62,111 nucleotides of DNA from Myxococcota bacterium (GCA_041288095.1 JBGGMJ010000090.1:1-62111), one strand, 5' to 3'. Counted from the stretch's first letter, positions 3,283 through 42,103 are shown. Notes: generated by a model from the letters alone, not told the origin. Made by a program: numbers and translations.

Positions 3283-3365
3283 GCGATCGCCAAAGCGATC
3301 CTTGGCGCGTGTTACAGCGTACTCCTTCGTGATAGCCCATGTCAGCAAATTCGAGGGTCCCCACC

Positions 3366-21799: not shown

Positions 21800-21802
21800 A
21801 CT

Positions 21803-29176: not shown

Positions 29177-30049
29177 TCAGGCAGCGCGGCGGCGCCGTGA
29201 CGAAATGACCTTGGCCCGGCGGCGCGCCACCTTGGCGTTGCCGAGTCGCCGCAGGAGACTGGGCAGCAGGGCCTCGAACTCGAGCAGCATCTCGCTCGCA
29301 TCCCGATAGCGCATGGCGTGATTGGGATTGGTGGCGGTGCGCACCATGTCGGCGAACGCGGGGCTGGTCTTGGCGCGCAGCGCCGAGACGTTGTCGAACG
29401 GCCAGAGGAACGGCCAACGCGGCAGCACGCCGGTGATCATCTGATGGATCATGAGCCCCAGCGAGAAGATGTCGGAGGCAAAGCAGGGATAGCCGTGGGC
29501 CTGCTCCGGCGCGCAATAGAGCAAGGTGCCGGAGCCGGTCGCCGAGATCATCGTGTGCTTGGCGACCTTGGCGAGGCCGAAGTCAGCGATCTTGATGATG
29601 CCGTCATCGAAGATCATCAGGTTCGACGGCTTCAAATCGCGGTGGATGATGCGGCGCTCGTGCGCGTGCGCGAGCCCGCGCAGCACCTGGTGGATGTAGC
29701 CGAGAGCAAGTCGCGTACCGAGGCGGCGAGTCAAGCGGTCATCGAGCGACTCACGCGCGAGCTCGATCGCTATAACGTACCGGTCGCCGATACGATCGGC
29801 GTTACGTGGCCGCAAGATCGCGTCGTGGTCGAGCGTCGCGCTCAAGCGGATCTCACGCAGGAGCTCGTCTTCTTCTTCGCTCCCGGCTTTCACCTTCGCG
29901 GGGAGCTTGAGCGCCACCCAGCGATCCTCGATGAGGTCCTTGGCCTTCCAGACCTGGCTGAAGCCGCCCGTGCCGATCTTGCTGGCGAGGCGGTACTTGC
30001 CGAAGGTCGTGCCTCGCGTGAGGCGCGTTGGAACGGGCTTGGCTGGCAT
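29177..30049 (-). CDS. Hanks-type Ser/Thr protein kinase (cytoplasmic, kinase domain only)
   Basis: GTGGFSQV, VALK, HRDLKPSN, DFG, APE. Confidence 0.93.
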   Translation of the reverse strand: MPAKPVPTRLTRGTTFGKYRLASKIGTGGFSQVWKAKDLIEDRWVALKLPAKVKAGSEEEDELLREIRLSATLDHDAILRPRNADRIGDRYVIAIELARESLDDRLTRRLGTRLALGYIHQVLRGLAHAHERRIIHRDLKPSNLMIFDDGIIKIADFGLAKVAKHTMISATGSGTLLYCAPEQAHGYPCFASDIFSLGLMIHQMITGVLPRWPFLWPFDNVSALRAKTSPAFADMVRTATNPNHAMRYRDASEMLLEFEALLPSLLRRLGNAKVARRRAKVISSRRRRAA

Positions 30050-30125
30050 GGGGCGGCGACCATAGCGGGCTGTGCACGTACTTGTCATTGGCCGATCGCA
30101 TGCGTCTTGATACAAGCTGCTGCCG

Positions 30126-31940
30126 ATGCAACGCCTGTACCGCGCAGGGGGGCTCGCCGCGGGCATGACCCTCGGGGGTCTCGCCGTTGGGGTCGCCGAA
30201 GGGGCCTACCGGGGGGTCGATTTGGCCTATTCCGGCATGTTCTACGCCGCTCTCTGGGCGCTCGCGGGCATCGGCTTGGCCCTGGTAACGGCGCGGGCCT
30301 TCGCGCGGACGCCTCCCGGGCTCATCACTTTCGGGGCGGCTCTGGCCCTGGTCAGCTCGACCATCGTGCTCGTCCGTTTCATTCTGCTACGTGATATTTA
30401 TCTCGAGGCTCCGGGAAAGGGGCTCGCGGCGGTCGCCTGGGGGCTCGCGGCCGGGGTCGGCATGCTCTTTCCGGTGCTGATGCTGAGCACCTGGATCCGC
30501 AGGCGCATCTTCTCGCGCTTTGCCCGTAGCCCGGCCTGGTGGGCCTTGCCGTTCGTGGCACTGGCGGCCTTCGGCATCCGGGCGGTCTCCGGACATGACG
30601 ATGACGCGGCGAACCCTGCCCCGCCGCACACGCTGCGCGGCGAGGGCACCATCCTCATCGTGGTCGACGCCCTGCGCGCCGACATGCTGGGTGCCTACGG
30701 GGCGCCACCGCACCGCGACGGCCCGCCGTCACCCGCCTTCGACGACTGGGCGACTCAAGGTCGCCGCTTCGACGACGTGACCGCGCACGCCTCTTGGACG
30801 AAGGCCGCGGTGGCGAGCATCATGACGTCCCGCCACGCCACCGGTCACGACACCATGAGCAAGGTCGCGGTGCTGCCGCAGACCCTGCCGACCATCGCCA
30901 AGACGCTCGGCGACGCGGGCGTGAAGACCGCCGCGGTGGTGACCAACTACAACCTCGAGGAAGGCTACGGCTTCGACAACGGCTTCGCCGAGTACCGCTA
31001 CCTCCCGCCGGCCCGTTATCTCGGAGCACCGGCGCGCGCCAACCGCCTCGCGGCCTACAATGTCTACCGCATCATGCGCGAAAAGCTCTTCACGGCCGGA
31101 CGCAGCCCCAAGGATTTTTTCCGCGATGGAGGAATGGTCAACGCCCACGCCTTCTCCATCTTGGACCGCATCGGCGACGACAAGTTCTTCCTCTACCTGC
31201 ACTACATGGAGCCGCACGATCCATATTTCTCGGTCGACGGCGCCTCGTTCGCCCGCGTGAGCCAACCCAACCCGCCGCTCGAATCCGCCGGCGCCATGCG
31301 CGACGCCTATCGCGACGGCGTCAAACGCTGGGACGGCTACTTCGGCGAGCTCCTCCAGGGGCTGGGCGCGCGCGGCCTCAGCGACCGCGTGCGCATCGTG
31401 GTCACCGCCGATCACGGCGAGGAATTCGGCGAGCACGGCGGCTTCTGGCACGGGACGACCTTGTACGAGGAGCAGCTCCGTGTGCCGCTCGCGATGCGCG
31501 GGCCCGGCATCGCCACCGGAGCGGACCCGCACCTCGCGCGTCAGGTGGACGTCGCTCCCACCATCGCCGGCTTCCACGCGGTCACCGTGCCTCCCACGTG
31601 GGAAGGCCGGGACCTGCGCGCCGACACGCCCGCTCCCGCCGCGGCGTTCGCCGAGGAAAATCACGAGGGCAACGTGCTGACGTCGGTGCGCCAAGCGGGG
31701 CGCAAGCTCATCGTCGCCAACGACGGCAATCCCCGGGGCCTCGCGCCGGTCGAGCTCTATGACCTGAACGCCGACCCGGGCGAGCGCAAAGCCCTCCGCG
31801 ACGACGCCACCACCCTCACCCTCACGACCGCCATGGAACGCCTGAAACGCGAGGCAAAACGCGGTGGTGCCGAAAGCACCGTGCGCCCCGTGGATGCCGC
31901 CGTCGAATCCGAGCTGCGAGCCCTCGGCTACGTGAAGTGA
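30126..31940 (+). CDS. Membrane-anchored sulfatase-like (alkaline phosphatase superfamily) protein
   Basis: About five N-terminal TMs; 'VDALRAD', 'SWTKAAVAS', 'EPHDPY', 'ADHGEEF.EHG..WHG'. Confidence 0.88.
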   Translation: MQRLYRAGGLAAGMTLGGLAVGVAEGAYRGVDLAYSGMFYAALWALAGIGLALVTARAFARTPPGLITFGAALALVSSTIVLVRFILLRDIYLEAPGKGLAAVAWGLAAGVGMLFPVLMLSTWIRRRIFSRFARSPAWWALPFVALAAFGIRAVSGHDDDAANPAPPHTLRGEGTILIVVDALRADMLGAYGAPPHRDGPPSPAFDDWATQGRRFDDVTAHASWTKAAVASIMTSRHATGHDTMSKVAVLPQTLPTIAKTLGDAGVKTAAVVTNYNLEEGYGFDNGFAEYRYLPPARYLGAPARANRLAAYNVYRIMREKLFTAGRSPKDFFRDGGMVNAHAFSILDRIGDDKFFLYLHYMEPHDPYFSVDGASFARVSQPNPPLESAGAMRDAYRDGVKRWDGYFGELLQGLGARGLSDRVRIVVTADHGEEFGEHGGFWHGTTLYEEQLRVPLAMRGPGIATGADPHLARQVDVAPTIAGFHAVTVPPTWEGRDLRADTPAPAAAFAEENHEGNVLTSVRQAGRKLIVANDGNPRGLAPVELYDLNADPGERKALRDDATTLTLTTAMERLKREAKRGGAESTVRPVDAAVESELRALGYVK

Positions 31941-31966
31941 CACGAATCACGCCCCCCGGTGTTCCA
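31937..31966 (+). promoter_or_regulatory. Putative ECF sigma autoregulatory promoter
   Basis: GTGACAC-N17-GTTCCA, ending 17 nt before the sigma ATG; identical boxes and spacing at 35382. Confidence 0.7.
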
Positions 31967-31983
31967 GGTTCCGAGACGAGCTG

Positions 31984-32472
31984 ATGGCTATCGACATCGA
32001 AGACGCCTACCGGCGCTTTGGACCCATGGTGGTTCGACGTTGTCGTGCCTTGCTCGCCGATCAGGAACAGGCGGTGGATGCCATGCACGACGTTTTCGTG
32101 CGTCTCATACAAAGCGGCGACCGGCTCGACGACCGAGGGATGTCGAGCTTGCTCTACCGCATCGCGACCAACGTCAGCTTGAACAAGCTGCGCACGCGCC
32201 GGCGCAAGCCGGAAAACGCGAACGACGACCTGCTGGCCGCCCTTGCCCACGCGACCGACGTCGAAGACAGCACTGGGACGCGCCGTTTGCTGCAACGCCT
32301 GCTCGGCGGCTTGAGCGAGAGCACCACGACGATGGCGGTCATGCACTGGGTCGACGGCATGAGCCTCGAAGAGGTCGCGGCCGAAACCGGCATGTCGGTC
32401 TCGGGGGTTCGCAAGCGATTGCGCATCTTGCGCGAACAGATCGGGGCGCAGACGGTGGAGGCCGCGCCATGA
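31984..32472 (+). CDS. ECF RNA polymerase sigma factor
   Basis: Region 2 'DAMHDVF...LYRIATN.SLN.LR'; region 4 'GMSLEEVAAETGMSVSGVRKRL'. Confidence 0.92.
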   Translation: MAIDIEDAYRRFGPMVVRRCRALLADQEQAVDAMHDVFVRLIQSGDRLDDRGMSSLLYRIATNVSLNKLRTRRRKPENANDDLLAALAHATDVEDSTGTRRLLQRLLGGLSESTTTMAVMHWVDGMSLEEVAAETGMSVSGVRKRLRILREQIGAQTVEAAP

Positions 32473-33182
32473 GCACACGGATCTCCGAGCTCATGCTCGA
32501 GCGCTATTTGGTAGGCGCCGCTACAGCGGACGAGAAGGCGCGCATCGAGGCATCGCCCGAGGCCCTGGAGCGCGTCGAGGCGATGCGACGTGAGAATGAC
32601 GAGCTCCTGGCGCTGCATTCGCCGCGCGTCGTCGCGGCCAAGGTGTCCGCTAGAGCGGCCGACGCGCCGAGGGTCAAGCCGTTCCTCTGGCTGGCGCCGT
32701 TGGTGGCGCTGGCTTGCGCCGTGCTCTTCGTGGTCGTGCCGCGCGGGCCCGACGACGAGGTCATCATCCTGAAAGGCGCAAAGCCGCACATCGCGCTCTA
32801 TCGGCAAGTCGGCAACACCAACGAGAAGCTCACGAGCGGCGCCAGCGCGCGTGCCGGTGACACGGTGCAGGTGTCGTACGTCGCGGCGGAAGCGACCTAC
32901 GGGGCCATCGTCTCGGTCGACGGTCGCGGCAACGTCACCGTGCACACGCCGACGAACGGCGACGGTAAGCTGTCGCAGCGCAACGAGGTCTTGTTGCCCC
33001 GTGCTTACACGCTCGACGACGCGCCGCGTTTCGAGCGCTTCGTGTTCGTCGCCGCCACCAGGCCCGTCGACATCGCCAAGCTCCAGAAGATGCTGCGCGA
33101 CGAGCCTGAGCTCGATGCCGAGAAGCTGCGCCGTGCCCTGGGCGGCGTCGTCGACGTCTTCACCCTGCGCAAGGAGCCCTGA
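32469..33182 (+). CDS. Putative anti-sigma factor (N-terminal helical domain, TM, DUF4384-like periplasmic domain)
   Basis: ATGA overlap with the sigma gene; 'LERYLVG' N-domain; TM 'FLWLAPLVALACAVLFVVV'; 'GDTVQVSY...SVDGRG...AYTLDDAP.FERF'. Confidence 0.75.
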   Translation: MSTRISELMLERYLVGAATADEKARIEASPEALERVEAMRRENDELLALHSPRVVAAKVSARAADAPRVKPFLWLAPLVALACAVLFVVVPRGPDDEVIILKGAKPHIALYRQVGNTNEKLTSGASARAGDTVQVSYVAAEATYGAIVSVDGRGNVTVHTPTNGDGKLSQRNEVLLPRAYTLDDAPRFERFVFVAATRPVDIAKLQKMLRDEPELDAEKLRRALGGVVDVFTLRKEP

Positions 33183-33184
33183 GC

Positions 33185-35380
33185 ATGCGTTTCCTCCTCG
33201 TTGCTCTGTCGCTCGCCCTTCCGCTCACGGCGCACGGCCAAGACACGCCGGTGCGCCGCTTCGCGCTGGTGGTCGGTGTCAGCTCCGGCGGACCATCACG
33301 CACACCGCTGCGCTATGCCACGAGCGACGCCGAAGCCTTCGCGCAAGTCTTGTCGGCCCTGGGCGGCGTGGCTGCCGCCGACAAGGTCGTGTTGGTGAAC
33401 CCGGGTCGGACCCAGTTCGACATGGCCCTGGCGGACATGCAGACGCGCATGGCCGACCGCGGCAACGCCTCGCGCGTCGAGCTCATCGTCTACTTCAGCG
33501 GACACTCAGACGAAAACGGGCTCATGCTCGGCGCCGAGCAGCTCTCCTACCAGTCGTTCCGCGCCGCGTTGGCGACCCTCCCCGCCGACGTGCGCATCGC
33601 CATCGTCGACTCGTGCCAGTCGGGCGCGTTGACCCGCCGCAAGGGTGGCACGATGCGGCCGCCCTTCCTGCTCGACACCTCGAGCAAGGTGCAAGGTCAG
33701 GCCATCTTGACCTCGAGCTCCGAAACCGAAGCGGCGCAGGAATCGGACCGCATCAAGGGCTCGTTTTTCACCCACTATCTCATCTCGGGTCTGCGCGGCG
33801 CCGCCGACGTGACCCGCGACCGCCGCGTGACCTTGAACGAGGCCTACCAGTTCGCTTTCGCGGAAACGTTGGCGCGCACCGAAGGCACGCAATACGGTCC
33901 GCAACACCCGGCCTACGAGATCCAGCTCACCGGCACCGGCGATGTCGTCATGACCGACCTGCGCGCCACCACGGCGTCGCTCACCATCGACGAGCCGCTC
34001 GCGGGCCGCGTCTTCCTGCGCGACAAGAACGGCGTCCTCGTCGCCGAGCTCTTCAAGGTGGAAGGCCGCGCCGTCGAGATCGGCCTCGAGCCCGGCGTCT
34101 ACAATGTCCGCGTCGAGAAGAAGGACGAGATCCTCGAGGGCACGGTGGAGGTTGGCGTCAACGCCAGCGCCAAGCTCTTCCGCTCGAGCTTGAGCCAAGG
34201 GCGCGTCGAGGTGGCGGCGCGACGCGGCGGTGAAGAGCGCGTGGAAGGCGTGGCGACAGCCGAGACGAAGCGCCAGGTCACGCATCCCATCTCGTTCAGC
34301 CTCGTCCCCGACCTGACGTTGCCAACGACGCCCGACGACGTCGTGCTCACCAAGAACCTCAGCATCGAGCTCATCTACGGCGTGACCGACCACTTGCGTG
34401 GTCTGGCGCTGTCGCTGGGCGCGACGCGAGCCAAGCAGTCGATGCGCGGACTGCAGATGTCGCTGGTGCTCAACTTCACCGGCGGCGACAGCGAAGGCAT
34501 TCAAGTCTCGAGCATCATGAACATCGCCGACGGCGAGATGCGCGGCATCCAGATTGGCGCCATCGCCAATCGCGACCGTGGCGTATTCAGCGGCATCGAG
34601 GTCGCGTCCGCGGTCAACTGGAACAGCGGACCCACCACCGGTTTGCAGCTCGCGGCCGGCGTCAACATCGCGGACGACGTCCTCGGTCTCCAGGTAGCGC
34701 CGGTGAATATCGCCGGCGACGTCGCCGGCATGCAGTACGGCATGGTCGGTGTCGGCGACGACGTACAGGGCGCCCAGATCGCGCTCGTCAACGTCGGCGG
34801 CGACGTTCGCGGTGTGCAGCTCGGGCTCGTCAACGTCGGACAAGTGGTCACGGGCGCGCAGATCGGGCTCGTCAACGTCTCGAAAGAGATGCACGGCGTC
34901 CCGTTCGGTCTCTTCAGCTACATCCGCAATCGCGGCCTCGGTGGTGACGTCGGCGCCAGCACCAACGAGCCGCTGCAGCTTGCGCTGCGCTACGACACCG
35001 GTGGGGTCTTCTACGGCTTTCTCGGCGGTGGCATCTTCGCCTTCGACCGCATGGCCCGCGGCGATGCCTACTTGGGCGTCGGCTTCGGCGCACGCCTCGC
35101 CACCTTCACCAACTGGAGTCTCGAAACCGACATCTTGGTCGCGCACGCCACCCTCGACTTCGGCAGCTCCCGCGCCGACATGATCGTGCGCGAGCGCATC
35201 AGCTTCGTCTTTCCCTTCGAGAAGCTGTCCGCTTTCGCGGGCGTCTCGTGGTTCGAGTACATGGGCTGGAACGGCACAGACATCGCGAGCAACGCGGGCC
35301 CGGTGCTCGACACCGTGCACCAGTCGGGCGACTTCACCTTCCGCACTTGGCCGTCGCTGCACGCGGGTGTGCGTTTCTAG
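33185..35380 (+). CDS. Exported caspase-family (C14) protease with beta-solenoid repeats and OM-barrel-like C-terminus
   Basis: Signal peptide ending AHG; 'RFALVVG', 'YFSGH', 'VDSCQSG', 'AAQES...SFFTH'; repeats 'G.Q.G.VN'; ends '...AGVRF'. Confidence 0.88.
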   Translation: MRFLLVALSLALPLTAHGQDTPVRRFALVVGVSSGGPSRTPLRYATSDAEAFAQVLSALGGVAAADKVVLVNPGRTQFDMALADMQTRMADRGNASRVELIVYFSGHSDENGLMLGAEQLSYQSFRAALATLPADVRIAIVDSCQSGALTRRKGGTMRPPFLLDTSSKVQGQAILTSSSETEAAQESDRIKGSFFTHYLISGLRGAADVTRDRRVTLNEAYQFAFAETLARTEGTQYGPQHPAYEIQLTGTGDVVMTDLRATTASLTIDEPLAGRVFLRDKNGVLVAELFKVEGRAVEIGLEPGVYNVRVEKKDEILEGTVEVGVNASAKLFRSSLSQGRVEVAARRGGEERVEGVATAETKRQVTHPISFSLVPDLTLPTTPDDVVLTKNLSIELIYGVTDHLRGLALSLGATRAKQSMRGLQMSLVLNFTGGDSEGIQVSSIMNIADGEMRGIQIGAIANRDRGVFSGIEVASAVNWNSGPTTGLQLAAGVNIADDVLGLQVAPVNIAGDVAGMQYGMVGVGDDVQGAQIALVNVGGDVRGVQLGLVNVGQVVTGAQIGLVNVSKEMHGVPFGLFSYIRNRGLGGDVGASTNEPLQLALRYDTGGVFYGFLGGGIFAFDRMARGDAYLGVGFGARLATFTNWSLETDILVAHATLDFGSSRADMIVRERISFVFPFEKLSAFAGVSWFEYMGWNGTDIASNAGPVLDTVHQSGDFTFRTWPSLHAGVRF

Positions 35381-35381
35381 G

Positions 35382-35411
35382 GTGACACTTTTTTCAAGTC
35401 GCGGGGTTCCA
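35382..35411 (+). promoter_or_regulatory. Putative ECF sigma target promoter upstream of exbB
   Basis: GTGACAC-N17-GTTCCA, same as upstream of the sigma gene. Confidence 0.7.
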
Positions 35412-35433
35412 CGAGGCGAAAGGAACCCCACAC

Positions 35434-36081
35434 ATGGAAATCGTTCAGCACTCGCAAGCCATCCTCCTCAAGCTCGGCGCCGGTTGGGTCCTCTGGGTCT
35501 TGGTCGTCCTCAGCATCGTCTCGGTCGCGGTCGTCGTCGAGCGCCTGCTGGCGTTGCGCGCCCTTCGCGTCCCGGGCTCGTTACTGCGTGAGAGCCTGCG
35601 CGAGGCCCTGCGGGTCGGCGGCTTCGGCAGCGGTGTTTCGAGCATGTCACGCCACCGCCACCCAGCCGCCCGCGTCGCGCTCCGCGGCATGGAGTCCGGC
35701 ACCAAGGTCGTCGCCGAGGCGAGGACCGTGATGGACGCCGAGATCATCGCGCAGCGTCGTCTGCTGGAGCGGAGGTTCGCGTTTCTCGCGACGCTGGGCG
35801 CCAACGCGCCCTTCGTCGGGCTCCTGGGGACGGTCATCGGCATCTTGCAGGCGTTCAACGCGCTGGGCGTCGCCGCGGCGGGCAACGCCAAAGCCGCCCT
35901 CGACCCGAGTCACGTGATGACCGGCGTCGGTGAGGCGCTGGTCGCCACGGCGGTCGGGCTCGCGGTCGCGATTCCCGCCATCGTCGCCTTCAACGTCTTG
36001 CAGCGCGTGGTGAAGGGCGCCCTCGACGACGCGCAAACGCTGGCGCTCGAGGTCGTCGCCTACCTCGAAGGGAAGGCGTGA
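35434..36081 (+). CDS. exbB: ExbB/TolQ proton channel
   Basis: 'LATLGANAPFVGLLGTVIGI...EALVATAVGLAVAIPA'. Confidence 0.9.
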   Translation: MEIVQHSQAILLKLGAGWVLWVLVVLSIVSVAVVVERLLALRALRVPGSLLRESLREALRVGGFGSGVSSMSRHRHPAARVALRGMESGTKVVAEARTVMDAEIIAQRRLLERRFAFLATLGANAPFVGLLGTVIGILQAFNALGVAAAGNAKAALDPSHVMTGVGEALVATAVGLAVAIPAIVAFNVLQRVVKGALDDAQTLALEVVAYLEGKA

Positions 36082-36082
36082 G

Positions 36083-36499
36083 ATGGCCGCCGCCATGCAA
36101 ACCGATAGCGACCTGATGAGCGGCATCAACGTCACCCCGCTCGTCGACATCACGTTGGTGTTGCTCGTGGTGTTCCTGGTGACCGCGAAGATCATCGCGG
36201 CCAGTGCCCTGGCGGTCGACCTGCCGCAAGCTCGGACGGCAACCAGCGAGCAGACCATCTTGCATGTCGCCATCGCCAAGGATGGCACCATCGGCATCGA
36301 CGAGACGGCTGCTTTGGCGGACGAGGCAATCCTCTCACGCGCCAAGGCGGCGCTCGCCAGCGACAGCGAAGTGCGCGCCGTCATCGACGCCGATGGCGCG
36401 GTGGCACACGCGCGGGTCGTGCATGCGATGGATCTCTTGCGCCGTGCCGGCCTCTCGCGGGTCGCGTTCGGCGTCGAGCCCGAGGTGGTGACGCCATGA
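36083..36499 (+). CDS. exbD: ExbD/TolR
   Basis: 'INVTPLVDITLVLLVVFLVT', 'VDLP', 'IDAD..V'. Confidence 0.92.
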   Translation: MAAAMQTDSDLMSGINVTPLVDITLVLLVVFLVTAKIIAASALAVDLPQARTATSEQTILHVAIAKDGTIGIDETAALADEAILSRAKAALASDSEVRAVIDADGAVAHARVVHAMDLLRRAGLSRVAFGVEPEVVTP

Positions 36500-37170
36500 T
36501 GGGCATGCCGCGCAACTGGCTCATCGGCGCCTGCGTGTCGACGTTCGTGCATATCATGTGCGCGCGTGCGGCGCTGCGCATGGACCCACCGCCGCCGCCA
36601 CCACCGCGGCCGATGGAGGTCGAGCTCGCGCCGCCGCCGGCACCTCGCGCACGTGAACCGGAGCCCGAGCCCGAGAAACCGGCGCGCGCCAGAGTAACTC
36701 AGAAGACCGCGGCCAAGGCGGGGCATGTGATCACCGCCGCTCCAGACCAAGCGGATGCCTCGCCGGTCGACTTCAGCATCGTGCAGGGCGCGGCGGACAG
36801 GTACGTCGGCGGCACCACTTCGGCGGTGGGTGCGAGCGATGCGCCGGTGCTGGGCCCTGTCACCCCGGACGCCACGGCGACCAGCAAGCGCGCGGCGGTG
36901 CCGGCGTCGCCGGCAGGCTCGGAGTGGGACTGCTCGGCGCTCTACCCGGCGGATGCCAATGCCCCGAACGCCGCCGCTGTCATGGTGCAGGTGCGCACCG
37001 ACGCCGCCGGCCGACCGCAAGCGGTGAGCATCTTGCGCGACCCGGGCCACGGCTTCGGCACGGCCGCGCGAGCCTGCGCCATGCGCCAGACCTATCAACC
37101 GGCGCGCGACGCCGATGACCACGAGGTCCCGGGCGAGACCCGCCCGTTTCTAGTTCGCTTCCACCGCTAA
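36496..37170 (+). CDS. tonB: TonB-family energy transducer
   Basis: TM with S-x3-H, Pro-rich linker, C-terminal 'YP...PGHGFG.AA..C'. Confidence 0.8.
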   Translation: MMGMPRNWLIGACVSTFVHIMCARAALRMDPPPPPPPRPMEVELAPPPAPRAREPEPEPEKPARARVTQKTAAKAGHVITAAPDQADASPVDFSIVQGAADRYVGGTTSAVGASDAPVLGPVTPDATATSKRAAVPASPAGSEWDCSALYPADANAPNAAAVMVQVRTDAAGRPQAVSILRDPGHGFGTAARACAMRQTYQPARDADDHEVPGETRPFLVRFHR

Positions 37171-37201
37171 AGCGGTCAACGACCAGCAAGGATTTCCCGA
37201 C

Positions 37202-39484
37202 ATGTTTCTCGACGTGCTTGGACTCGTGTGTCTTCTCGCCGCCCCGGTCGTCGAAGCGCCGGAGCTGCGCGAGAGTGTCGAGGCGGACTATCCGCCGGCG
37301 GCTCTCGCCGAGCGGCTCACCGCGCGCGTCGTGCTGCGGCTCGACATCGACGCGACGGGTATGGTGACCGCGGCCGAGGTTACCGAGCCAGTGGGCCACG
37401 GCTTCGACGAAGCGGCGCGCGCTGCCGTGCTGCGCTTCCGCTTCCAGCCCGCGACGCGCGACGGCAACCCCATCGCGTCGCGCATCCTCTACACCTATCT
37501 CTTCGAGCTCGAGCCGGAGCCGGAGCCGGAGCCTACGCCCGCGCTCGCAACTCAGCCTGAGCCCGAGCCCCCCGCGCCCGAAGACGTGGAAGAGGTCGAG
37601 ATCCGCGGCGCGCGCGCCGACCGCGAGGTGACCAAGCGGGAGATGACCCGAGAACAGCTGCGCACCGCCGCTGGCTCGAACGGCGATGCCCTGCGCGCCA
37701 TTCAGAACCTGCCGAGTATCGCGCGCGCTCCGGGCCTCGCGGGTCAGCTCGTCGTCCGCGGCAGCGCACCGGAGGACACCGAAGCCTACGTGGATGGCAG
37801 CTTCGTCCCCTTCGTCTATCACTTTGGCGGACTCGCTTCGATCATCCCCACCGAGATGCTCGACGGCATCGACTTTTACCCCGGCAACTTCGGCGCCAAG
37901 TACGGTCGTGTCGCCGGCGGTATCGTCGACATCCGCATGCGCCCAGGTGAAACCGATGGGGGCTTCCATGGGATGGCGCAGGTCGACTTCATCGACGCGC
38001 GCGGACTCGTGCGTGGCCCATTGGGCCGCGGCTGGACCATCATCGCGGGTGTCCGCCGCAGCCATCTCGACGCTTGGATCGGCGGTCTGCTCCCGAGCGG
38101 CAGCCGTGCGCCCTACTACTTCGACGCGCAGCTGTTCCTCGAGAATCGCCTCACCGAGCGCTCGCGCCTGCGCATCGGAGTCTACGGTGCCTACGACGCT
38201 CTACGGGTCGTCGACGAGGGTGAAGGCGACGCCCCGGTCGGCACCGTCGCGGTCTCGCAGGGCTTCTATCGCATCCAGGCGAACTACGACAATCAGCTCA
38301 CCGACGCGCTCAGCCTGAAGCTCATGGCGAGCTGGGGCCGCGACACGCCCAACTTCAATGTCGGCCCGCAGCGTATCGCCAGCAGCCTCTACACGTATGC
38401 GCTGCGTGGCGAGCTGCAGGCGAAGCTCGCCGACTGGATGACCGTTTCAGCGGGCTACGACGTGGTCACCGTCGACTATGCGACCGACCTGCGCTTTCCC
38501 GACTTCGCGCTACCCGGCGAGAGCGATACGGGCGTCGATGCGACGGCTCGGACGCGTGTCTTGAAGACCGGCGGGTGGTTCAATCGGCCGGCCGCCTACC
38601 TGCAGGCGCGCATCACGCCCATCGCCGGGCTAGAGGTCGTGCCTTCCCTCCGCCTCGACTACGACCACGAAAACGAAAACCTCGACTTCGGGCCGCGCAT
38701 GAATGCGCGCTACGACATCAGGCCGACCTTCCCGCGCACGACGATAAAAGGCGCGGCGGGGCTCTACTACAAGCCGCCGGTGTGGCGCGAAACACTGCCG
38801 GTCGTCGGGCAACCGGGCTTGAATTCCGACCGCGTGCTCGCGAAATCGCTCGGCGTCGAGCAAGAGCTGGCGCGCGGCGTCACCCTCTCGTTCGAAGGCT
38901 TCCACAAGGAACTCGAGCGCCTGGTCTCACGCACGCCGACCGAAGACGGTGGCTACCTCTACGGGAATCGCGGCAGCGGCCGCGCCTACGGCACGGAGCT
39001 GCTGGTGCGTCACGAAGGCGAGCGCCTCTCGGGCTTTCTCGCCTATACGCTATCGCGGTCAACGCGTGTCGACCAACCCGGCGAGCAGCGCCGCCTCTTC
39101 GAATACGACCAAACGCACATCCTCACCGCCCTCGCGAGCTACCGGCTCGGGAGCGGCTGGCTCATCGGCGGCCGATTTCGCATGGTGAGCGGCAACCCCT
39201 ACACCCCGTGCGTCGGCGGCCGCTTCGATTCGTCCTCGGGCAGCTACGCTTGCATCACCGGCCGCGAGTACGGCGAGCGCATGCCGATGTTCCATCAGCT
39301 CGACGTGCGCGTCGAGAAGACGTGGGCGTTCACCTCGTGGAAGCTCTCGACCTACGTCGACGTCATCAACGCCTACAACCACAAGAACGCGGAGGCCCCG
39401 ACCTACAAGTTCGACAACTCGCAGGGCGGCTTTGCCTACGGCCTGCCCTTCTTCCCCAGCATCGGTGTGCGAGGTGAGCTATGA
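37202..39484 (+). CDS. TonB-dependent receptor with N-terminal TonB C-terminal-like domain
   Basis: 'YPPAA...GHGFDEAARAAV.RFRF.PA' domain; plug 'NLPSIAR...VRGS..ED'; barrel 'YDQTH', 'HQLDVRVEK'. Confidence 0.92.
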   Translation: MFLDVLGLVCLLAAPVVEAPELRESVEADYPPAALAERLTARVVLRLDIDATGMVTAAEVTEPVGHGFDEAARAAVLRFRFQPATRDGNPIASRILYTYLFELEPEPEPEPTPALATQPEPEPPAPEDVEEVEIRGARADREVTKREMTREQLRTAAGSNGDALRAIQNLPSIARAPGLAGQLVVRGSAPEDTEAYVDGSFVPFVYHFGGLASIIPTEMLDGIDFYPGNFGAKYGRVAGGIVDIRMRPGETDGGFHGMAQVDFIDARGLVRGPLGRGWTIIAGVRRSHLDAWIGGLLPSGSRAPYYFDAQLFLENRLTERSRLRIGVYGAYDALRVVDEGEGDAPVGTVAVSQGFYRIQANYDNQLTDALSLKLMASWGRDTPNFNVGPQRIASSLYTYALRGELQAKLADWMTVSAGYDVVTVDYATDLRFPDFALPGESDTGVDATARTRVLKTGGWFNRPAAYLQARITPIAGLEVVPSLRLDYDHENENLDFGPRMNARYDIRPTFPRTTIKGAAGLYYKPPVWRETLPVVGQPGLNSDRVLAKSLGVEQELARGVTLSFEGFHKELERLVSRTPTEDGGYLYGNRGSGRAYGTELLVRHEGERLSGFLAYTLSRSTRVDQPGEQRRLFEYDQTHILTALASYRLGSGWLIGGRFRMVSGNPYTPCVGGRFDSSSGSYACITGREYGERMPMFHQLDVRVEKTWAFTSWKLSTYVDVINAYNHKNAEAPTYKFDNSQGGFAYGLPFFPSIGVRGEL

Positions 39485-40374
39485 GAGCGCTTTTCGTCGT
39501 TGTCTGCTTAAGCGGAGTGGCTTGCTCCGACCAATTCCCGCCAGCCTCGCGTCTCGAGGGTGCCCGCGTGCTGGCGGTGGTCGCGGACCCTCCGTTCGCG
39601 GTCCCCGGCGCCACTGTCGCCTTCGACATGCTGGCGGTGTCGCAAGCCGGCGTGCCGCTCGAGGTCGCCTGGTTCGCGGGCTGTGAGAATCCGCCCGGCG
39701 ACCAGGCGGAGCGCTGTCTCGACACGCTCGACACCACGATCGTTCTCGGCGACACCCACTTCGAAACCACGATCTCCGCCGACATCATCAGCCGGCTGCC
39801 GCCGACACCCGGCTCGACGCCCAAATACGGCACCGCCTACGTCTACTTCGCCGTTTGCGCCGGCACCCTCGTCAACCAGGAGCGGCTCGGCTTCGGCGTC
39901 GACTGTGTCGACCGCGATAGTGGCCAGCCGCTCGGCGCCGCGAGCTTCGTCGTCGGCTACACGCCGATCTTCGCGTATGACGACGTCGCGAACACCAATC
40001 CGCTGATCGCCGACGTCTCCGTGCCCGACAGCGTTCCTGCCTGCACGGCGGCCGATGTCGACGACTGCCCCGACATCGACGTGCTGGTGGCGGTCGACCC
40101 CTCGCAGTCCGAGCCCGACTACTCCGCCGTAGCGGTCGGCGACAGCCCGGTCGGTGAGCTCCTCTGGGCGACGTTCTTCACGACCAGCGGCGAGTTCGTC
40201 GCCGACACGCGTCTCATCGCCGATGGCGACGACTTCCGTCCCCTCGATGACAGCAAGGGCACGTGGCACGTCGAGCCAGGCTACACCGGCCCCGTAACCA
40301 TTTACGTGGTGCTACGCGACAACCGCGGCGGCAGCTCCTGGACACGGCGCGAGGTCACGGTAACGGCGGACTGA
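39481..40374 (+). CDS. Cys-containing lipoprotein associated with the TBDT
   Basis: Lipobox VAC; 'RVLAVVADPP'; 'VVLRDNRGG'; ATGA overlap with the receptor gene. Confidence 0.8.
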   Translation: MRALFVVVCLSGVACSDQFPPASRLEGARVLAVVADPPFAVPGATVAFDMLAVSQAGVPLEVAWFAGCENPPGDQAERCLDTLDTTIVLGDTHFETTISADIISRLPPTPGSTPKYGTAYVYFAVCAGTLVNQERLGFGVDCVDRDSGQPLGAASFVVGYTPIFAYDDVANTNPLIADVSVPDSVPACTAADVDDCPDIDVLVAVDPSQSEPDYSAVAVGDSPVGELLWATFFTTSGEFVADTRLIADGDDFRPLDDSKGTWHVEPGYTGPVTIYVVLRDNRGGSSWTRREVTVTAD

Positions 40375-42103
40375 GCGGCGTCTGGATGTGGGACCAGCGA
40401 TAGCCAGTGACGAGGTATGCCTGACCGGTGCGGGATGCGCCGGTGATCACCTGCGCCTCGGCTGCGTCGGTGGCATAGCCGATGTACATGCGCGAGCCGG
40501 GGTTGGAGCGCTGGAACGCCCTGGCAGTGTCGCTATTGGTCGTCACGTAGGCCGAGACCTTGCCGTTCGGCGCGTAATACGAGGCGCGATAGACTGTCGC
40601 CGGTGCATGCTCGGCGAACTGAAAGCGACCGCCGTCCATGTGACGGCCGACCGCGCCGCGCATGCGGGCCCAGTTGCGCGAGACGAGGTTGCGCGGGTCG
40701 ATGCCGTTGGGGAGCACCTCTTCGGCCGAGGCACCCCGCGCCGGCGACTGCGCGACGCGCGGAACGGCGGACCGCATCGTGCGCACGCTCAGCCCCGCCG
40801 CCGGCACCAGCGCGGTCACGCCGCCGCCGACCCGATAGATGGCCTCGACGCGCTCGTCGCGGTCGCGCGCGTTCACGTAGGCGTAGGCGCCGTTGCCCGT
40901 CTCCCAGAGCCCATAGCCGAGACCCGCGGCCGCGAGCACCGAGACAGGGAGAGTCGCCGCGGCGGCGACCGTGCCGCCGGCGACCGCCATCGCGCCCCCG
41001 GGATTGTCCACCGCCCAGTCGAACGCGCTGTCGACCGGCTTGGTCAGCGAGTGCAGGAAGTACTCCCACTCGGGTGTGTTGGTCGCGTCGCGTCCCTCGG
41101 TGAACATGCTCTCGGCGACACGACGATCGACCCAGCTCATCTCGGACGCGATGGTGTGGCGAATGGCGGGAAAGTCGGCGCCTTCGGGCACCGGCACGCC
41201 GTGCACCAGCATCAGGCGATGCAGCTCAGCCTCGGCGCCGGCTTTCGCGCCGCTGAGATGGATCTGCGCGAGGGCGATCTGAGCGGCACGCTCGTCTGTA
41301 CCAGGCCGCCCGAGCGTCGCGTTGAAGAGCGCTTGCGCCATGGCGTCGGCGCCGCCCATGGTCATCGACACTTCCGAGCGCGCGGCGGCCAGCAGACGTT
41401 GCCGCGCGAGGACGTCGCCGGGATTGTTCGCGAGCATCTCCACGACCCGTGGGTCATCCATGCCGCGCCAGCGGCCGATCTCGGCGTCGAGCCTCTCGCG
41501 TAGGTCGACGAGCCCCGCCTGGCTGTTCACGTCGACCGGTGTTCCGGTCGGCAGGTTCAGGCCCTCCACGAGCGCGAGGACGCGATGCTGCCGGAGCTGC
41601 GTAACGCCGACGCGTGCGGCGTCGAGCTGTGGCGTCAACGTGGCGATGCGCGCCTCATCGGGTGGAGTGCGACCGCGCGCCTCGCGGATTTGCCGATCGA
41701 TCGAGGCGGCGTGCTGAATGCCGCTGTCGACGGCCGAGGCGAGCTCGTCGGGGCTGAGGTCGTAGTCCGGCATGCGGCGGCTGTCGACGCGGGTCACCGG
41801 CAGGCCGACCTCCTGTGCCCGGCGATAGACGGCCGTGCGCGCATCGAAGTCGCCCGGCGCATCCAGCCGCGCCCGCAGGTCGCGGAGCTGTCCCAAATGG
41901 CGACGGACGCCGTCACCACCCAAGCGCTCGTTCGGGGTCATGACGGCGATGCGCTCGTCGATCCTGGCGCGAGCTTGTGGCTTCTCCGCCTCGGTGATGA
42001 CGCCGGGGCTCGCGTCGTCACCGGTCTGGCCAGCTTGCGGCCGGCTAGGATCGATGTCGCGGACGATGTGCGCGAACCGATTATTGGGCGGCGGAACCGT
42101 CAC
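40355..42103 (-). CDS. Hypothetical effector-like protein: annexin-like motif, hydrophobic hairpin, possible C-terminal ADP-ribosyltransferase-like domain
   Basis: 'AQALFNATLGRPGTDERAAQIAL'; 'GGAMAVAGGTVAAAATLPVSVLAAAGLGYGL'; 'TVYRA...YVTTNSDTARAF'. Confidence 0.55.
   Translation of the reverse strand: MTVPPPNNRFAHIVRDIDPSRPQAGQTGDDASPGVITEAEKPQARARIDERIAVMTPNERLGGDGVRRHLGQLRDLRARLDAPGDFDARTAVYRRAQEVGLPVTRVDSRRMPDYDLSPDELASAVDSGIQHAASIDRQIREARGRTPPDEARIATLTPQLDAARVGVTQLRQHRVLALVEGLNLPTGTPVDVNSQAGLVDLRERLDAEIGRWRGMDDPRVVEMLANNPGDVLARQRLLAAARSEVSMTMGGADAMAQALFNATLGRPGTDERAAQIALAQIHLSGAKAGAEAELHRLMLVHGVPVPEGADFPAIRHTIASEMSWVDRRVAESMFTEGRDATNTPEWEYFLHSLTKPVDSAFDWAVDNPGGAMAVAGGTVAAAATLPVSVLAAAGLGYGLWETGNGAYAYVNARDRDERVEAIYRVGGGVTALVPAAGLSVRTMRSAVPRVAQSPARGASAEEVLPNGIDPRNLVSRNWARMRGAVGRHMDGGRFQFAEHAPATVYRASYYAPNGKVSAYVTTNSDTARAFQRSNPGSRMYIGYATDAAEAQVITGASRTGQAYLVTGYRWSHIQTPLSPPLP

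Follow-up and report, generated by a model that had tools for sequence, protein, structure and literature searches.

The DNA analysed here, a window of 62,111 nucleotides from a Myxococcota bacterium, encodes an ECF sigma factor, an anti-sigma-like membrane protein and an exported caspase, which, to judge from gene content and order across genomes, make up a widely conserved, hitherto undescribed three-gene switch; no paper describing such a sigma/anti-sigma/caspase triple was found in the literature. Our preferred reading, to which we give a probability of roughly 0.45, is that of a self-regulated envelope signalling module in which the caspase cuts the anti-sigma factor, and the freed sigma factor directs transcription of its own operon and of the adjoining exbB operon. 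In this module, the one-pass anti-sigma protein would keep the ECF sigma factor at the inner membrane, and an active C14 caspase would be exported, with an 8-stranded barrel as its outer-membrane anchor and a beta-solenoid stalk projecting it into the periplasm. Upon a cue, the caspase would cleave the anti-sigma factor after the invariant lysine of a T-R-x-K-G motif (between K102 and G103 in the window), and K153/G154 in its own inter-subunit loop would mediate autoprocessing or autoinhibition. An RseP-type site-2 protease would then clear the anti-sigma stub and release the sigma factor, which would read TGACAC-N15-G(T/G)GTT promoters, including that of its own operon, leading to positive feedback and more caspase. 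A second copy of this promoter would, in this lineage, place the exbB-exbD-tonB-TBDT-lipoprotein operon under control of the same sigma factor.

Gene calls and profile matches bear out the original prediction of eight co-oriented, tightly packed genes (Table 1), whose intergenic gaps, from the sigma gene through the lipoprotein gene, are -4, 2, 53, 1, -4, 31 and -4 nt. The predicted cluster start at 31937 marks the place where the sulfatase gene upstream stops and the promoter lies, with the sigma gene itself beginning at 31984.

Table 1. Positions of the genes, predicted protein domains and promoter-like motifs of the cluster, counted from the first nucleotide of the window.
Feature	Position	Strand	Basis
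Promoter-like motif P(sig), TGACAC-N17-GTTCCA	31938..31966	+	Exact match
ECF sigma factor, 162 aa	31984..32472	+	Sigma70_r2, Sigma70_r4_2, TIGR02937
Anti-sigma-like protein, 237 aa	32469..33182	+	One TM helix, position after sigma
Anti-sigma juxtamembrane I-I-L-K-G, residues 99-103	32763..32777	+	Equivalent of family T-R-x-K-G
Exported caspase, 731 aa	33185..35380	+	Peptidase_C14 and signal peptide
Peptidase_C14 domain, caspase residues 23-258	33251..33958	+	51 bits (cut-off 21.4)
Caspase T-R-R-K-G, residues 150-154	33632..33646	+	Alignment of 60 caspases
Caspase beta-sandwich domain, residues 264-331	33974..34177	+	AF2 strand pattern, pLDDT >89
Caspase beta-solenoid stalk of LA_2272-type 14-residue repeats, residues 364-585	34274..34939	+	NF047436, structure comparison
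Caspase C-terminal 8-stranded OM barrel, residues 586-731	34940..35377	+	Structure comparison
Promoter-like motif P(exbB), TGACAC-N17-GTTCCA	35383..35411	+	Exact match
exbB (ExbB/TolQ-type proton channel), 215 aa	35434..36081	+	MotA_ExbB 4e-29, 101 bits
exbD (ExbD/TolR), 138 aa	36083..36499	+	2.3e-26, 92.8 bits
tonB-like, 224 aa	36496..37170	+	TonB_C 19.4 bits (under 24.6 cut-off)
TBDT, 760 aa	37202..39484	+	N-terminal TonB_C 7.4e-14, Plug 3e-7
Lipoprotein, 297 aa, lipobox LSGVAC	39481..40374	+	No family match

The product of the first gene matches Sigma70_r2 (1.4e-12; 47.6 bits, cut-off 24) and Sigma70_r4_2 (2.5e-6; 27.5 bits, cut-off 25.7), and scores 67.6 bits against TIGR02937, above the cut-off of 42.9; with sigma-2 and sigma-4 regions alone in 162 aa, it is by domain content an ECF (group 4) sigma-70 factor. 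No NCBIfam subfamily or equivalog model attains its cut-off with this protein, and the portion of the ECF classification supplement used here lists no ECF group that has this promoter or a caspase in its context. The next gene, which shares 4 nt with the end of the sigma gene, encodes a protein with an N-terminal cytoplasmic helical region of ~70 aa, from which a TM helix (residues ~71-90) leads to a DUF4384-like beta domain in the periplasm. Its gene position, single TM helix and N-terminal cytoplasmic domain fit a class I anti-sigma factor, with binding and inhibition of the sigma factor as its putative roles. The N-terminal region matches none of the anti-sigma families searched, as zf-HC2, RskA or similar models match 0/60 members; the zinc-type H...C..C pattern occurs in 0/150 representatives, no solved relatives were found, and the NCBIfam anti-sigmaE model matches at only E 0.007. 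The periplasmic domain scores 17.2 bits against DUF4384 (PF14326), under the 27-bit cut-off, and 16 of the 60 members match this family at E<=0.05, with cut-offs being exceeded in distant paralogues, by zf-HC2 at locus L088 (23.7 bits vs 22.2) and by DUF4384 at L087 (28.7 bits). The anti-sigma profile retrieves 2334 representatives at E<=1e-30. A profile search for the FecR domain (PF04773) gave no match in the anti-sigma protein; such a domain is present in another protein of the window (3339-4139).

The third gene encodes the exported caspase, in which a signal peptide, C14 domain, beta-sandwich, linker, beta-solenoid and outer-membrane barrel follow one another. The protein matches Peptidase_C14 at E 2e-13, and the predicted catalytic residues are found where they had been expected, the His of YFSGH being H107 (codon 33503-33505) and the Cys of DSC being C144 (codon 33614-33616), with both kept in 60/60 caspases aligned. 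The AF2 model has a mean pLDDT of 88, and the top Foldseek matches of the caspase domain are metacaspases (7qp1, E 9.5e-6; 4f6o, E 1.9e-5), with a probability of 1.00 against metacaspases, caspases and legumain. With its invariant His and Cys and its metacaspase-like fold, the caspase looks catalytically active. Putative cleavage after Lys or Arg, and autoprocessing, may be suggested by the conserved D-x-C motif, by analogy to metacaspase S1 pockets, and by a K-G motif in a disordered loop of the model.

While the beta-sandwich is common to long and short forms of the caspase, the alignment of acidobacterial short forms covers residues 1-350 and the stalk is missing from them. In the window protein, the stalk repeats score 33.7 bits against NF047436 (cut-off 25), which identifies them as LA_2272 repeats, and match the VC2662 family at 7e-14, with the VC2662 equivalog reaching 51.6 bits, under its cut-off of 140. 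In structure comparison, the stalk aligns over 200 residues with 3p4g, a beta-helical antifreeze protein (Z 17.9, rmsd 2.1), and with autotransporter/TPS beta-helices at Z 14-15. The C-terminal barrel, of ~146 residues and 8 strands and terminating in ...HAGVRF, is OmpA/NspA/PagL-like and matches OprF (4rlc; Z 14.4, rmsd 2.4 over 114), PagL (Z 13.2) and NspA (Z 13.1), as well as OmpW and OmpA. An autotransporter barrel appears among the matches only at Foldseek E 0.07; type Va autotransporters have a 12-stranded C-terminal barrel with a linker running through the pore. The long loops of the barrel here alternate with turns of 2-5 residues, in the register expected for a periplasmic N-terminus. 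The models place the caspase domain in the periplasm, tethered to the outer membrane by the beta-solenoid and the 8-stranded barrel.

The order of protease, beta-helix and C-terminal barrel recalls protease autotransporters, and the stalk alignments with the autotransporter passengers TibA (Z 15.4) and Ag43 (Z 14.9) could be read in the same way. This would suit protein foraging, in which an autotransporter-like surface caspase digests external proteins, the TBDT and lipoprotein import the resulting peptides, and the sigma/anti-sigma pair sets the expression level only. Gingipains with RagAB in Porphyromonas are a parallel for such an arrangement, and the dedicated lipoprotein partner of the TBDT, along with a caspase paralogue that closes an exbB-exbD-tonB-TBDT operon (L072), can be counted in its favour. 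We nevertheless consider foraging quite unlikely, as the short barrel best fits the 8-stranded type, and its loop/turn pattern places the N-terminus on the periplasmic side. No barrel of the 8-stranded OmpA/NspA/PagL type is known as an exporter of passengers. Foraging is also opposed by the stalkless acidobacterial forms and by the 73/80 loci with no TBDT nearby, and it offers no account of why the anti-sigma protein should have a conserved motif in its periplasmic linker.

This motif, T-R-x-K-G, is common to the anti-sigma and caspase partners. In the anti-sigma proteins, where it lies 9-39 residues (median 19) beyond the TM helix, K and G are found in 60/60 members and an Arg three positions before the putative cut in 52/60, and among independent representatives KG is present in 148/150 and R.KG in 137/150; the window protein reads I-I-L-K-G and is without this Arg. 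In the caspases, R151 and K153 are found in 60/60 and G154 in 58/60, and the T-R-R-K-G sits 6-10 residues past the catalytic Cys, opening a disordered loop (residues 153-166; AF2 pLDDT <50). The motif is retained as basic-Gly in five paralogous triples of ~30% identity, one of which (L088) has lost the Arg from both the caspase and the anti-sigma protein. We propose the anti-sigma K-G as the site-1 cleavage site and the caspase K-G as an autoprocessing or pseudosubstrate site, although T-R-x-K-G could instead be a structural or inhibitory element, as opposed to a cut site. Since the protease is fixed to the outer membrane and the K-G lies near the inner membrane, its reach is uncertain. An unlikely variant of the mechanism is a trans-envelope proximity sensor that induces the importer in this lineage, where the caspase hangs on a rigid stalk and K-G is cut only when the two membranes or an uninserted barrel unite enzyme and substrate; if this were true, sigma release would directly report the envelope's condition and here induce a TonB-powered importer.

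Genome-wide searches substantiate the claim that the same bipartite motif precedes the sigma gene and exbB, as TGACAC-N17-GTTCCA occurs exactly only at these two sites in the 5.85-Mb assembly. With <=1 mismatch, there are 2 matches in the window vs 0.17 expected (2/100 shuffles give 2), and 3 one-mismatch matches are found elsewhere in the assembly, below the 16 of a reversed control pattern. The upstream sulfatase gene has its stop codon in the first three bases of P(sig), whose 3' end is 17 nt from the sigma ATG, and P(exbB) runs from 2 nt past the stop codon of the caspase gene to 22 nt short of the exbB ATG; both sites are kept in the three closest relatives (L001-L003). In its family-wide form, P(sig) is TGACAC-N15-GTGTT, and P(exbB) has GGGTT vs the GTGTT of most sites. 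The family motif, TGACA[C/G]-N15-G[T/G]GTT, is present <=150 nt upstream of the module's first gene in 57/80 loci, where chance would give 0.0016 per 150-nt stretch, and TRACAS-N14-GGTGTT occurs 2, 11 and 9 times in three genomes, with 0 for the reversed control.

In the form AACAC-N15-GTGTT, the motif is a near-palindrome, and in AT-rich genomes (L031, L034, L065, L075) it forms a perfect inverted repeat scoring on both strands, as would be seen for the operator of an unrelated dimeric regulator. Such an operator is highly improbable, in that most sites are asymmetric, with TGACA[C/G] on the left and GGTGTT on the right, and always face the gene at ~20-70 nt before its start codon; moreover, the motif accompanies orthologues of this sigma factor across phyla and is absent before distant paralogous triples. 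The same distribution supports the predicted autoregulation of the sigma gene. The motif behaves as the sigma factor's own promoter, its geometry fits ECF promoters, and it is presumably read by this sigma factor.

The recurrence of the triple was counted at the 72 caspase loci for which 1500 nt or more of upstream DNA was available. An anti-sigma homologue is found directly upstream of the caspase gene in 69/72, and the order sigma, anti-sigma, caspase in 58/72, often with overlapping stop and start codons. The related loci fall under at least 8 phylum-level labels, so that the neighbourhood survey called for by the original prediction extends the triples far beyond the myxobacteria in which they had been said to recur, with both the linkage and the upstream motif conserved. 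Several exceptions were found: L066, L072 and L075 have a caspase gene with no adjacent anti-sigma gene, Fibrimonas having its caspases at L066/L075 and a sigma/anti-sigma pair at L108, and Archangium L082 is a sigma/anti-sigma pair with no caspase within 1.4 kb. Pairing of the caspase with the sigma/anti-sigma genes is therefore not obligatory.

These exceptions are of use to the alternative in which the caspase is produced by the regulon and does not trigger it, being one of several envelope hydrolases, with the sigma/anti-sigma pair sensing through the DUF4384-like domain and the anti-sigma T-R-x-K-G serving as a caspase decoy or inhibitor, a feedback site, or a site cut by another protease. 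This is possible, if doubtful. The caspase gene is always found behind the sigma factor's promoter, even where no sigma gene is linked (Archangium-type anti-sigma+caspase pairs, L066/L075 and L072), and L082 shows a pair that stands alone. In addition, in two complete myxobacterial genomes the motif precedes about ten units, mostly genes for exported proteins, that include lipoproteins, alpha/beta hydrolases, a beta-lactamase-fold protein and another TBDT. However, the anti-sigma and caspase genes stay together in 11/72 loci where the sigma gene lies elsewhere, that the caspase keeps the same promoter when unlinked from the sigma gene also counts for the preferred reading, and the strict conservation of the catalytic dyad and of the motif in both partners goes beyond the needs of a bystander effector. 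A role of the caspase as sensor or site-1 protease is plausible from the shared motif, the predicted periplasmic site and the sigma-less pairs, and on this reading it would cleave the anti-sigma factor.

By gene content, ExbB, ExbD, TonB and the TBDT are a TonB-ExbB-ExbD energised outer-membrane transport set. The tonB product carries a TM helix at its N-terminus and a spacer rich in Pro and Glu; it matches TonB_C weakly, and its location after exbD is conserved. The TBDT consists of an N-terminal TonB_C-like domain, an EP-repeat linker, a plug (31.5 bits, above cut-off) and a barrel (26.9 bits, below cut-off), and over the first 246 residues it is similar to MxcH (132 bits, far under the equivalog cut-off). 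The lipoprotein has an Ig-like fold with Big_9-like structure matches (TM <0.5), its relatives in the Atlas are hypothetical Myxococcota clusters, and its homologues adjoin the TBDT in L001, L003, L024, L038 and L059; on this distribution, it pairs with this TBDT and is restricted to Myxococcota. Only 7/80 related loci carry exbB/exbD, and in 7/7 of these, in three gene arrangements, the motif (L001, L002, L024, L059, L072) or the one-base variant TGACGC (L003, L038) precedes exbB. Because the importer operon carries the same promoter as the switch, the switch probably turns on the adjoining TonB importer. With the triple widespread and exbB linked in so few loci, all of them with the motif, the TonB operon is therefore a lineage-specific output, so that the prediction of an import machine as output holds for the target here, but not as a general rule.

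The cluster encodes, under the sigma factor's promoter, a TBDT that is extended at its N-terminus, which also raises FecA-FecR-FecI-type signalling, in which an ECF sigma factor likewise activates TonB-dependent uptake encoded alongside; here the extension would relay substrate binding to the anti-sigma factor, and the caspase would be incidental. The original prediction had set the locus apart from this type, and we agree that it is very unlikely to apply: the anti-sigma protein is without a FecR domain, the TBDT extension is TonB_C-like with no STN signalling domain among the profile matches, the sigma factor scores 33.7 bits against a FecI model with a cut-off of 185, and no TBDT lies in the flanks fetched for 73/80 related modules.

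Returning to the module in which the caspase acts as site-1 protease, RpoE-RseA is a well-known precedent, where a one-pass anti-sigma protein holds an ECF sigma factor until it is cut at site 1 by DegS and then at site 2 by RseP, and where the operon is autoregulated. The window system is similar in its one-pass anti-sigma protein, proposed dedicated periplasmic site-1 protease, presumably autoregulated operon and available site-2 family genes, but the site-1 enzyme of RseA is an inner-membrane PDZ serine protease as opposed to a proposed OM-anchored cysteine caspase, and here there is no RseB and the anti-sigma protein is unrelated in sequence. Peptidase_M50, the site-2 protease family, has 4 matches above cut-off in the genome; it scores in all 14 control genomes too, and is therefore a permissive, not a specific, feature. 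Dma is likewise an ECF switch with a regulator that spans from inner to outer membrane by way of a beta-barrel, although there one polypeptide crosses both membranes and no protease is involved, whereas here a separate protein, the caspase, makes up the outer-membrane part.

By analogy of their parts, the closest published analogues of the triple are DdvA/DdvS and craspase-Csx30. As described in the sections of the DdvS/DdvA report from Myxococcus xanthus used here (PMC11506125), that system also combines an ECF sigma factor and a one-pass anti-sigma factor with a caspase-fold His-Cys protease on the periplasmic side; the periplasmic CHAT domain has been proposed as the site-1 protease of DdvA itself, cutting in a flexible membrane-adjacent linker before RseP acts. 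In DdvA, however, the protease is a TPR-CHAT fused to the anti-sigma factor and acting within a dimer, as opposed to a separate OM-tethered C14 caspase, and there is a zinc anti-sigma domain, which the anti-sigma protein here does not have. DdvS controls a CBASS/CRISPR defence island, as opposed to envelope and uptake genes, and DdvA-type proteins are reported there to be narrowly distributed, whereas the module here spans many phyla. The window anti-sigma protein was itself ruled out as DdvA-type, as its 237 aa include no protease domain and the caspase is encoded by a separate gene.

In craspase, the caspase-fold protease Csx29 (TPR-CHAT) cuts a flexible linker of Csx30, which binds an RpoE-type sigma factor, much as is proposed for the anti-sigma factor here. 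Craspase is a cytoplasmic, type III-E CRISPR system with a CHAT protease that is RNA-triggered via Cas7-11, as opposed to a periplasmic C14 enzyme with CRISPR genes not nearby. One group of Csx30 proteins has DUF4384 as its C-terminal domain (bioRxiv 10.1101/2022.08.17.504292), the family that the anti-sigma periplasmic domain here resembles; if the proximity-sensor variant is true, DUF4384 could serve more generally for docking and mark sigma regulators, among them this anti-sigma protein and some Csx30, as substrates of caspase-fold proteases. A caspase-like protease conserved beside an ECF sigma factor, and proposed to regulate it, has also been described for ECF54, whose context includes carboxypeptidase-regulatory-like, subtilase and CHAT proteins (PMC8999054; PMC7826278). 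As far as the parts of these sources used here describe it, ECF54 is confined to Actinobacteria and has CHAT and no anti-sigma factor, as opposed to the C14 caspase and anti-sigma protein found in this window.

Because the region is GC-rich (about 0.65-0.71), it contains many long spurious ORFs, and reading frames were picked by family matches combined with third-position GC. The frames chosen in this way bear out the predicted run of eight co-oriented genes on the plus strand, from sigma to lipoprotein, and place the expected YFSGH histidine and DSC cysteine within the caspase. The genes are separated by -4, 2, 53, 1, -4, 31 and -4 nt in that order, and the gap between the caspase gene and exbB holds no terminator-like site (4 across the region against 4.4 expected). 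Chance adjacency of the eight genes was considered and rejected. The stretch containing the cluster is present in two soil-metagenome DNA runs from one study, with no RNA run among the entries of the sequencing-run listing.

Genes of the sigma/anti-sigma/caspase and TonB cluster in the window
Feature	Position	Strand	Remark
ECF sigma	31984-32472	+	family match
anti-sigma-like one-pass membrane protein, 237 aa	32469-33182	+	
exported caspase, 731 aa	33185-35380	+	YFSGH (H107), DSC (C144)
exbB	35434-36081	+	
exbD	36083-36499	+	
tonB	36496-37170	+	
TonB-dependent transporter (TBDT)	37202-39484	+	
lipoprotein	39481-40374	+	

The neighbourhood survey proposed as a check on the original prediction was carried out by scanning one genome per species, where 163 stretches were found to encode caspase relatives; the best 80 of the 163 were kept as loci (L001 onwards), their six-frame ORFs were searched with the window's proteins, and gene starts were modelled. 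Among the 72 loci having at least 1500 nt upstream of the caspase gene, an anti-sigma homologue lies directly upstream in 69, and both anti-sigma and sigma are present in 58. Anti-sigma without sigma was seen at 11 loci (ten of Archangium type and L048), and neither gene at L066 and L075 (Fibrimonadales) or at L072. Record titles place the loci in Myxococcota, Acidobacteriota, Fermentibacteria, Eiseniibacteriota, Latescibacterota, Gemmatimonadota, Spirochaetota, Planctomycetota and Fibrobacterota-type MAGs, bearing in mind that taxon labels of MAGs can be erroneous. The recurrence of the triple, which the original prediction gave for myxobacteria, extends to many phyla, and by its gene neighbourhoods the triple is a widespread module. 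An anti-sigma profile built from 60 sequences and run against 1.84 billion proteins gave 8166 representatives at E<=0.001, 5217 at E<=1e-10 and 2334 at E<=1e-30.

In large myxobacterial genomes (Archangium minus, L082 and L085; a Myxococcaceae strain, L081, L086 and L072) the module is split and multiplied into a sigma/anti-sigma pair, a separate anti-sigma/caspase pair and a caspase paralogue ending a TonB operon, all with the same promoter; other paralogous triples in these two genomes have zinc-type anti-sigmas and do not carry the TGACAC...GTGTT promoter. The window's own genome also encodes a second, more distant triple (L091, contig C188, 3592-4203, 4207-4986 and 4990-6612), whose caspase is 40% identical across the N-terminal 310 residues and in which DUF4384 (E 1.4e-4) and the motifs E-R-V-K-G and T-R-L-K-G were found.

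The claim that one bipartite motif precedes both the sigma gene and exbB holds exactly, and the motif is specific, with TGACAC-N17-GTTCCA matched perfectly at 31938-31966 and 35383-35411. These are the only two matches in the window with up to one mismatch (0.17 expected) and the only exact ones in the 5.85-Mb assembly, where a reversed control pattern gives 16 hits, more than the three further matches with one mismatch; both sites are kept in the three closest relatives. A family-wide form, (G)T[G/A]ACA[C/G]-N15-G[T/G]GTT, was found upstream of sigma orthologues in all phyla sampled; it is asymmetric, always directed towards the gene, and lies about 20-70 nt before the start codon. The strict pattern occurs within 150 nt upstream of the module's first gene in 57 of the 80 loci, where 0.0016 would be expected per 150-nt stretch. 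Several of the 23 loci without a strict match in that distance have near-variants recognised by eye (GTGTC, TGACGC, GTAACGG), and in others the start model was unusable or upstream DNA was absent. Where the sigma gene is missing, the site stands directly before the anti-sigma gene (Archangium type) or the caspase gene (Fibrimonadales), and in Fibrimonas a different contig carries the sigma/anti-sigma pair, which has a separate copy of the site. Counts of TRACAS-N14-GGTGTT were 2 in the window's genome, 11 in Archangium minus and 9 in the Myxococcaceae strain, with 0 for the reversed control in each. The site was not found upstream of the distant paralogous triples L087-L090 or, as TGACAC...GTGTT, upstream of the C188 triple, which fits a different promoter specificity for these. 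With its AAC-like -35 core, spacer of about 16 nt and GGTG, the motif has a layout matching that of the ECF promoters of SigW, SigM and SigX; it behaves as the promoter of the sigma gene itself, and its use by this sigma factor may be inferred.

Position, topology and translational coupling mark the second gene as a putative anti-sigma factor. None of its 60 aligned members matches an anti-sigma family, a profile search against solved structures gave just two designed coiled coils (E 0.055 and 1.3), nothing usable, and close relatives are named 'hypothetical protein' and once 'anti-sigma factor RsiW' in the databases. Independent support comes from the paralogous triples, where the second gene encodes the same DUF4384-like domain (above cut-off in L087, 28.7 bits) together with a classical H-x3-C-x2-C zinc motif (matching zf-HC2 above cut-off in L088).

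The two proteins encoded by the second and third genes share a short basic motif. The 60-row alignments combine the window with 59 of the 80 loci, namely those that allowed both starts to be modelled and had a complete caspase ORF. In all 60 anti-sigmas the periplasmic part opens with an invariant K-G (K102-G103 in the window) in the consensus T-R-x-K-G (T in 32 of 60, R in 52 of 60), lying 9-39 residues (median 19) past the transmembrane helix and followed by a conserved beta domain. In the partner caspases the catalytic cysteine is followed by SG-x-x-[T/A]-R-x-K-G-G, with R and K in 60/60 and the first G in 58/60; the caspase model shows disorder between K153 and residue 166, the region corresponding to that in which caspases carry their inter-subunit linker. 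Outside the alignment, 150 further anti-sigma representatives have KG in 148 and R.KG in 137, and a basic-Gly motif persists in both partners across five paralogous triples of about 30% identity. The arginine is missing from both partners in L088, and L089 has R-G in the anti-sigma and R-G-R-S-K-G in the caspase; these single cases suggest, short of proof, that caspase and anti-sigma co-vary.

An AF2 model of the caspase from the 60-row alignment (mean pLDDT 88) comprises a caspase domain (23-258), a beta-sandwich (264-331), a disordered linker (344-360) and an all-beta C-terminal half. In Foldseek searches the N-terminal domain groups with metacaspases, caspases and legumain, and the whole model gave matches to the caspase domain alone. 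Folded separately to reveal its parts (35-row alignment, pLDDT 89.9, pTM 0.79), the C-terminal half resolves into two folds, namely a beta-solenoid of LA_2272-type repeats (364-585; best match antifreeze protein 3p4g, Z 17.9, rmsd 2.1 over 200 residues) and an 8-stranded barrel (about 583-731) matching OprF (Z 14.4), NspA (13.1), PagL (13.2), OmpW and OmpA. The barrel strands are linked alternately by loops of 10-14 residues and turns of 2-5, in the register expected for a periplasmic N-terminus, and from this fold and register we infer that the caspase would be periplasmic, suspended from the outer membrane by its barrel. A second rival reading, that of a surface-displayed foraging caspase supplying the TBDT, requires a topology that this barrel model does not favour. 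In acidobacterial homologues, which are short forms, the caspase and sandwich are kept and followed by just 150-210 residues.

The best-supported reading of the locus has four steps, in which the anti-sigma would hold the sigma factor, the periplasmic caspase on its outer-membrane tether would cut the anti-sigma after the invariant lysine, a site-2 protease would complete its removal (four genes of the M50 site-2 protease family are present in the genome), and the released sigma would drive its own operon and the importer. In the main rival reading, the caspase would be no more than an output of the regulon. A complex prediction of caspase 20-350 with anti-sigma 92-237, made from the 60-row alignments and without controls, scored 0.01 against a mark of 0.32 and counts neither way. 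The interpretation first proposed is partly supported, the system being a putative case of regulated anti-sigma proteolysis with a separate caspase tethered to the outer membrane.

The importer is the main local member of the regulon in the window. The pair exbB and exbD occurs at seven of the best 80 loci, at six of these together with a TBDT homologue: downstream on the same strand in L001-L003 and L038, divergent and upstream in L024 and L059, and in L072 within a separate exbB-exbD-tonB-TBDT operon with a caspase paralogue at its end. The motif precedes exbB in 7/7 (as the one-base variant TGACGC in L003 and L038), and the lipoprotein gene is a conserved TBDT neighbour in L001, L003, L024, L038 and L059. 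The TonB operon would accordingly be a lineage-specific target of the switch. Of the interpretation first proposed, the recurring triple, the repeated motif and the TonB operon as target stood, and the TonB machine as a general output did not. Further motif sites, ten from two complete genomes and one from the window's own, mostly precede exported proteins or lipoproteins, pointing to a regulon of envelope and uptake functions with variable content; the genes behind them include alpha/beta hydrolases, a beta-lactamase-fold protein, DUF2807, DUF4833 and, behind one site, a second TBDT with its own lipoprotein. Of 16 sites newly retrieved in all, L099, L100, L103 and L105 lack a plausible gene closely downstream, and these four were taken as chance.

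The only other TRACAS-N14-GGTGTT site in the window's genome (L107, C51:21074-21099, minus strand) lies 150 nt before the gene for a secreted protein (281 aa) that belongs to no known family, with a class III adenylate/guanylate cyclase encoded next; the site is possibly a third regulon promoter or chance. At L106 (G002:C1:7976971-7981371, in the Myxococcaceae strain) a TBDT with N-terminal TonB_C, CarboxypepD_reg and Plug domains stands behind the same promoter, with a 439-aa lipoprotein encoded next; TonB_C-like domains at the N-terminus seem to be widespread in these myxobacterial TBDTs.

To our knowledge, bacterial caspases are abundant and almost none has a known substrate or role, and ECF sigma groups of unknown trigger are equally common. 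The module offers a concrete candidate enzyme-substrate pair with a predicted cut site (K/G in T-R-x-K-G) and a predicted autoprocessing site, along with a defined promoter and a readable regulon, in an anti-sigma family of thousands of members in many phyla. The window itself contributes a defined output, the TonB operon, together with the second copy of the promoter; the operon would serve as an easy reporter and a physiological handle. A FecIRA-type reading was rejected, the defining features of that system being absent here; DdvA/DdvS, craspase/Csx30, ECF54, RseA/DegS/RseP and the Dma dual-membrane anti-sigmas are also among the closest published systems. DUF4384 is among the accessory domains listed for cyanobacterial orthocaspases, and a preprint on craspase/Csx30 assigns one group of Csx30 C-terminal domains to DUF4384 (bioRxiv 10.1101/2022.08.17.504292). 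In DdvA/DdvS, a CHAT domain is fused to the anti-sigma and a site-1 role has been proposed, not demonstrated (PMC11506125), whereas the window's caspase is a separate protein; ECF54 has a CHAT protein in its gene context (PMC8999054; supplement of PMC7826278). In the literature searched, no account of an ECF sigma/anti-sigma operon with a C14 caspase was found; 'caspase', 'C14' and 'DUF4384' are absent from the main text of the ECF re-classification (PMC7826278), and the available parts of its supplement contain neither 'caspase', 'Peptidase_C14' or 'metacaspase' nor promoter text with TGACA or GTGTT. If the caspase is the site-1 protease, the DdvA/craspase theme of caspase-fold proteases freeing sigma factors would reach a free-standing periplasmic system on an outer-membrane tether.

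Genes around the cluster encode two sulfatases, a type I phosphodiesterase/NPP and an FGE-type enzyme for sulfatase maturation (30126-31940, 42187-43773, 44616-46037, 47944-48687), a neighbourhood that may hint, as a lead only, at the substrate class of the importer. The upstream sulfatase gene (30126-31940), separated from the sigma gene by 43 nt, is kept in L001-L003, its stop codon forming part of the first promoter element; its annotated start is overlapped by about 40 nt by a Ser/Thr protein kinase gene (29180-30166, minus strand), and the true start is probably further downstream. A FecR-domain protein (3339-4139, plus strand, 1.5e-12), preceded by small ORFs at 1792-2424 and 2492-2848 with no family at E<=1e-5, may form with them a separate sigma-regulator unit. 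A 792-aa ORF (19703-22078, minus strand) joins a periplasmic binding-protein domain (Peripla_BP_6, 4e-60) to a BPD_transp_2 branched-chain amino-acid permease domain (9e-40), followed by a second permease and an ABC ATPase, and is either an unusual fusion or the result of a missed start codon. Two minus-strand ORFs, 4280-8290 (1337 aa) and 40358-42103 (582 aa), resemble coding sequence in their third-position GC and match no Pfam family at E<=1e-5, the latter being convergent on the lipoprotein gene and overlapping its final 20 nt.
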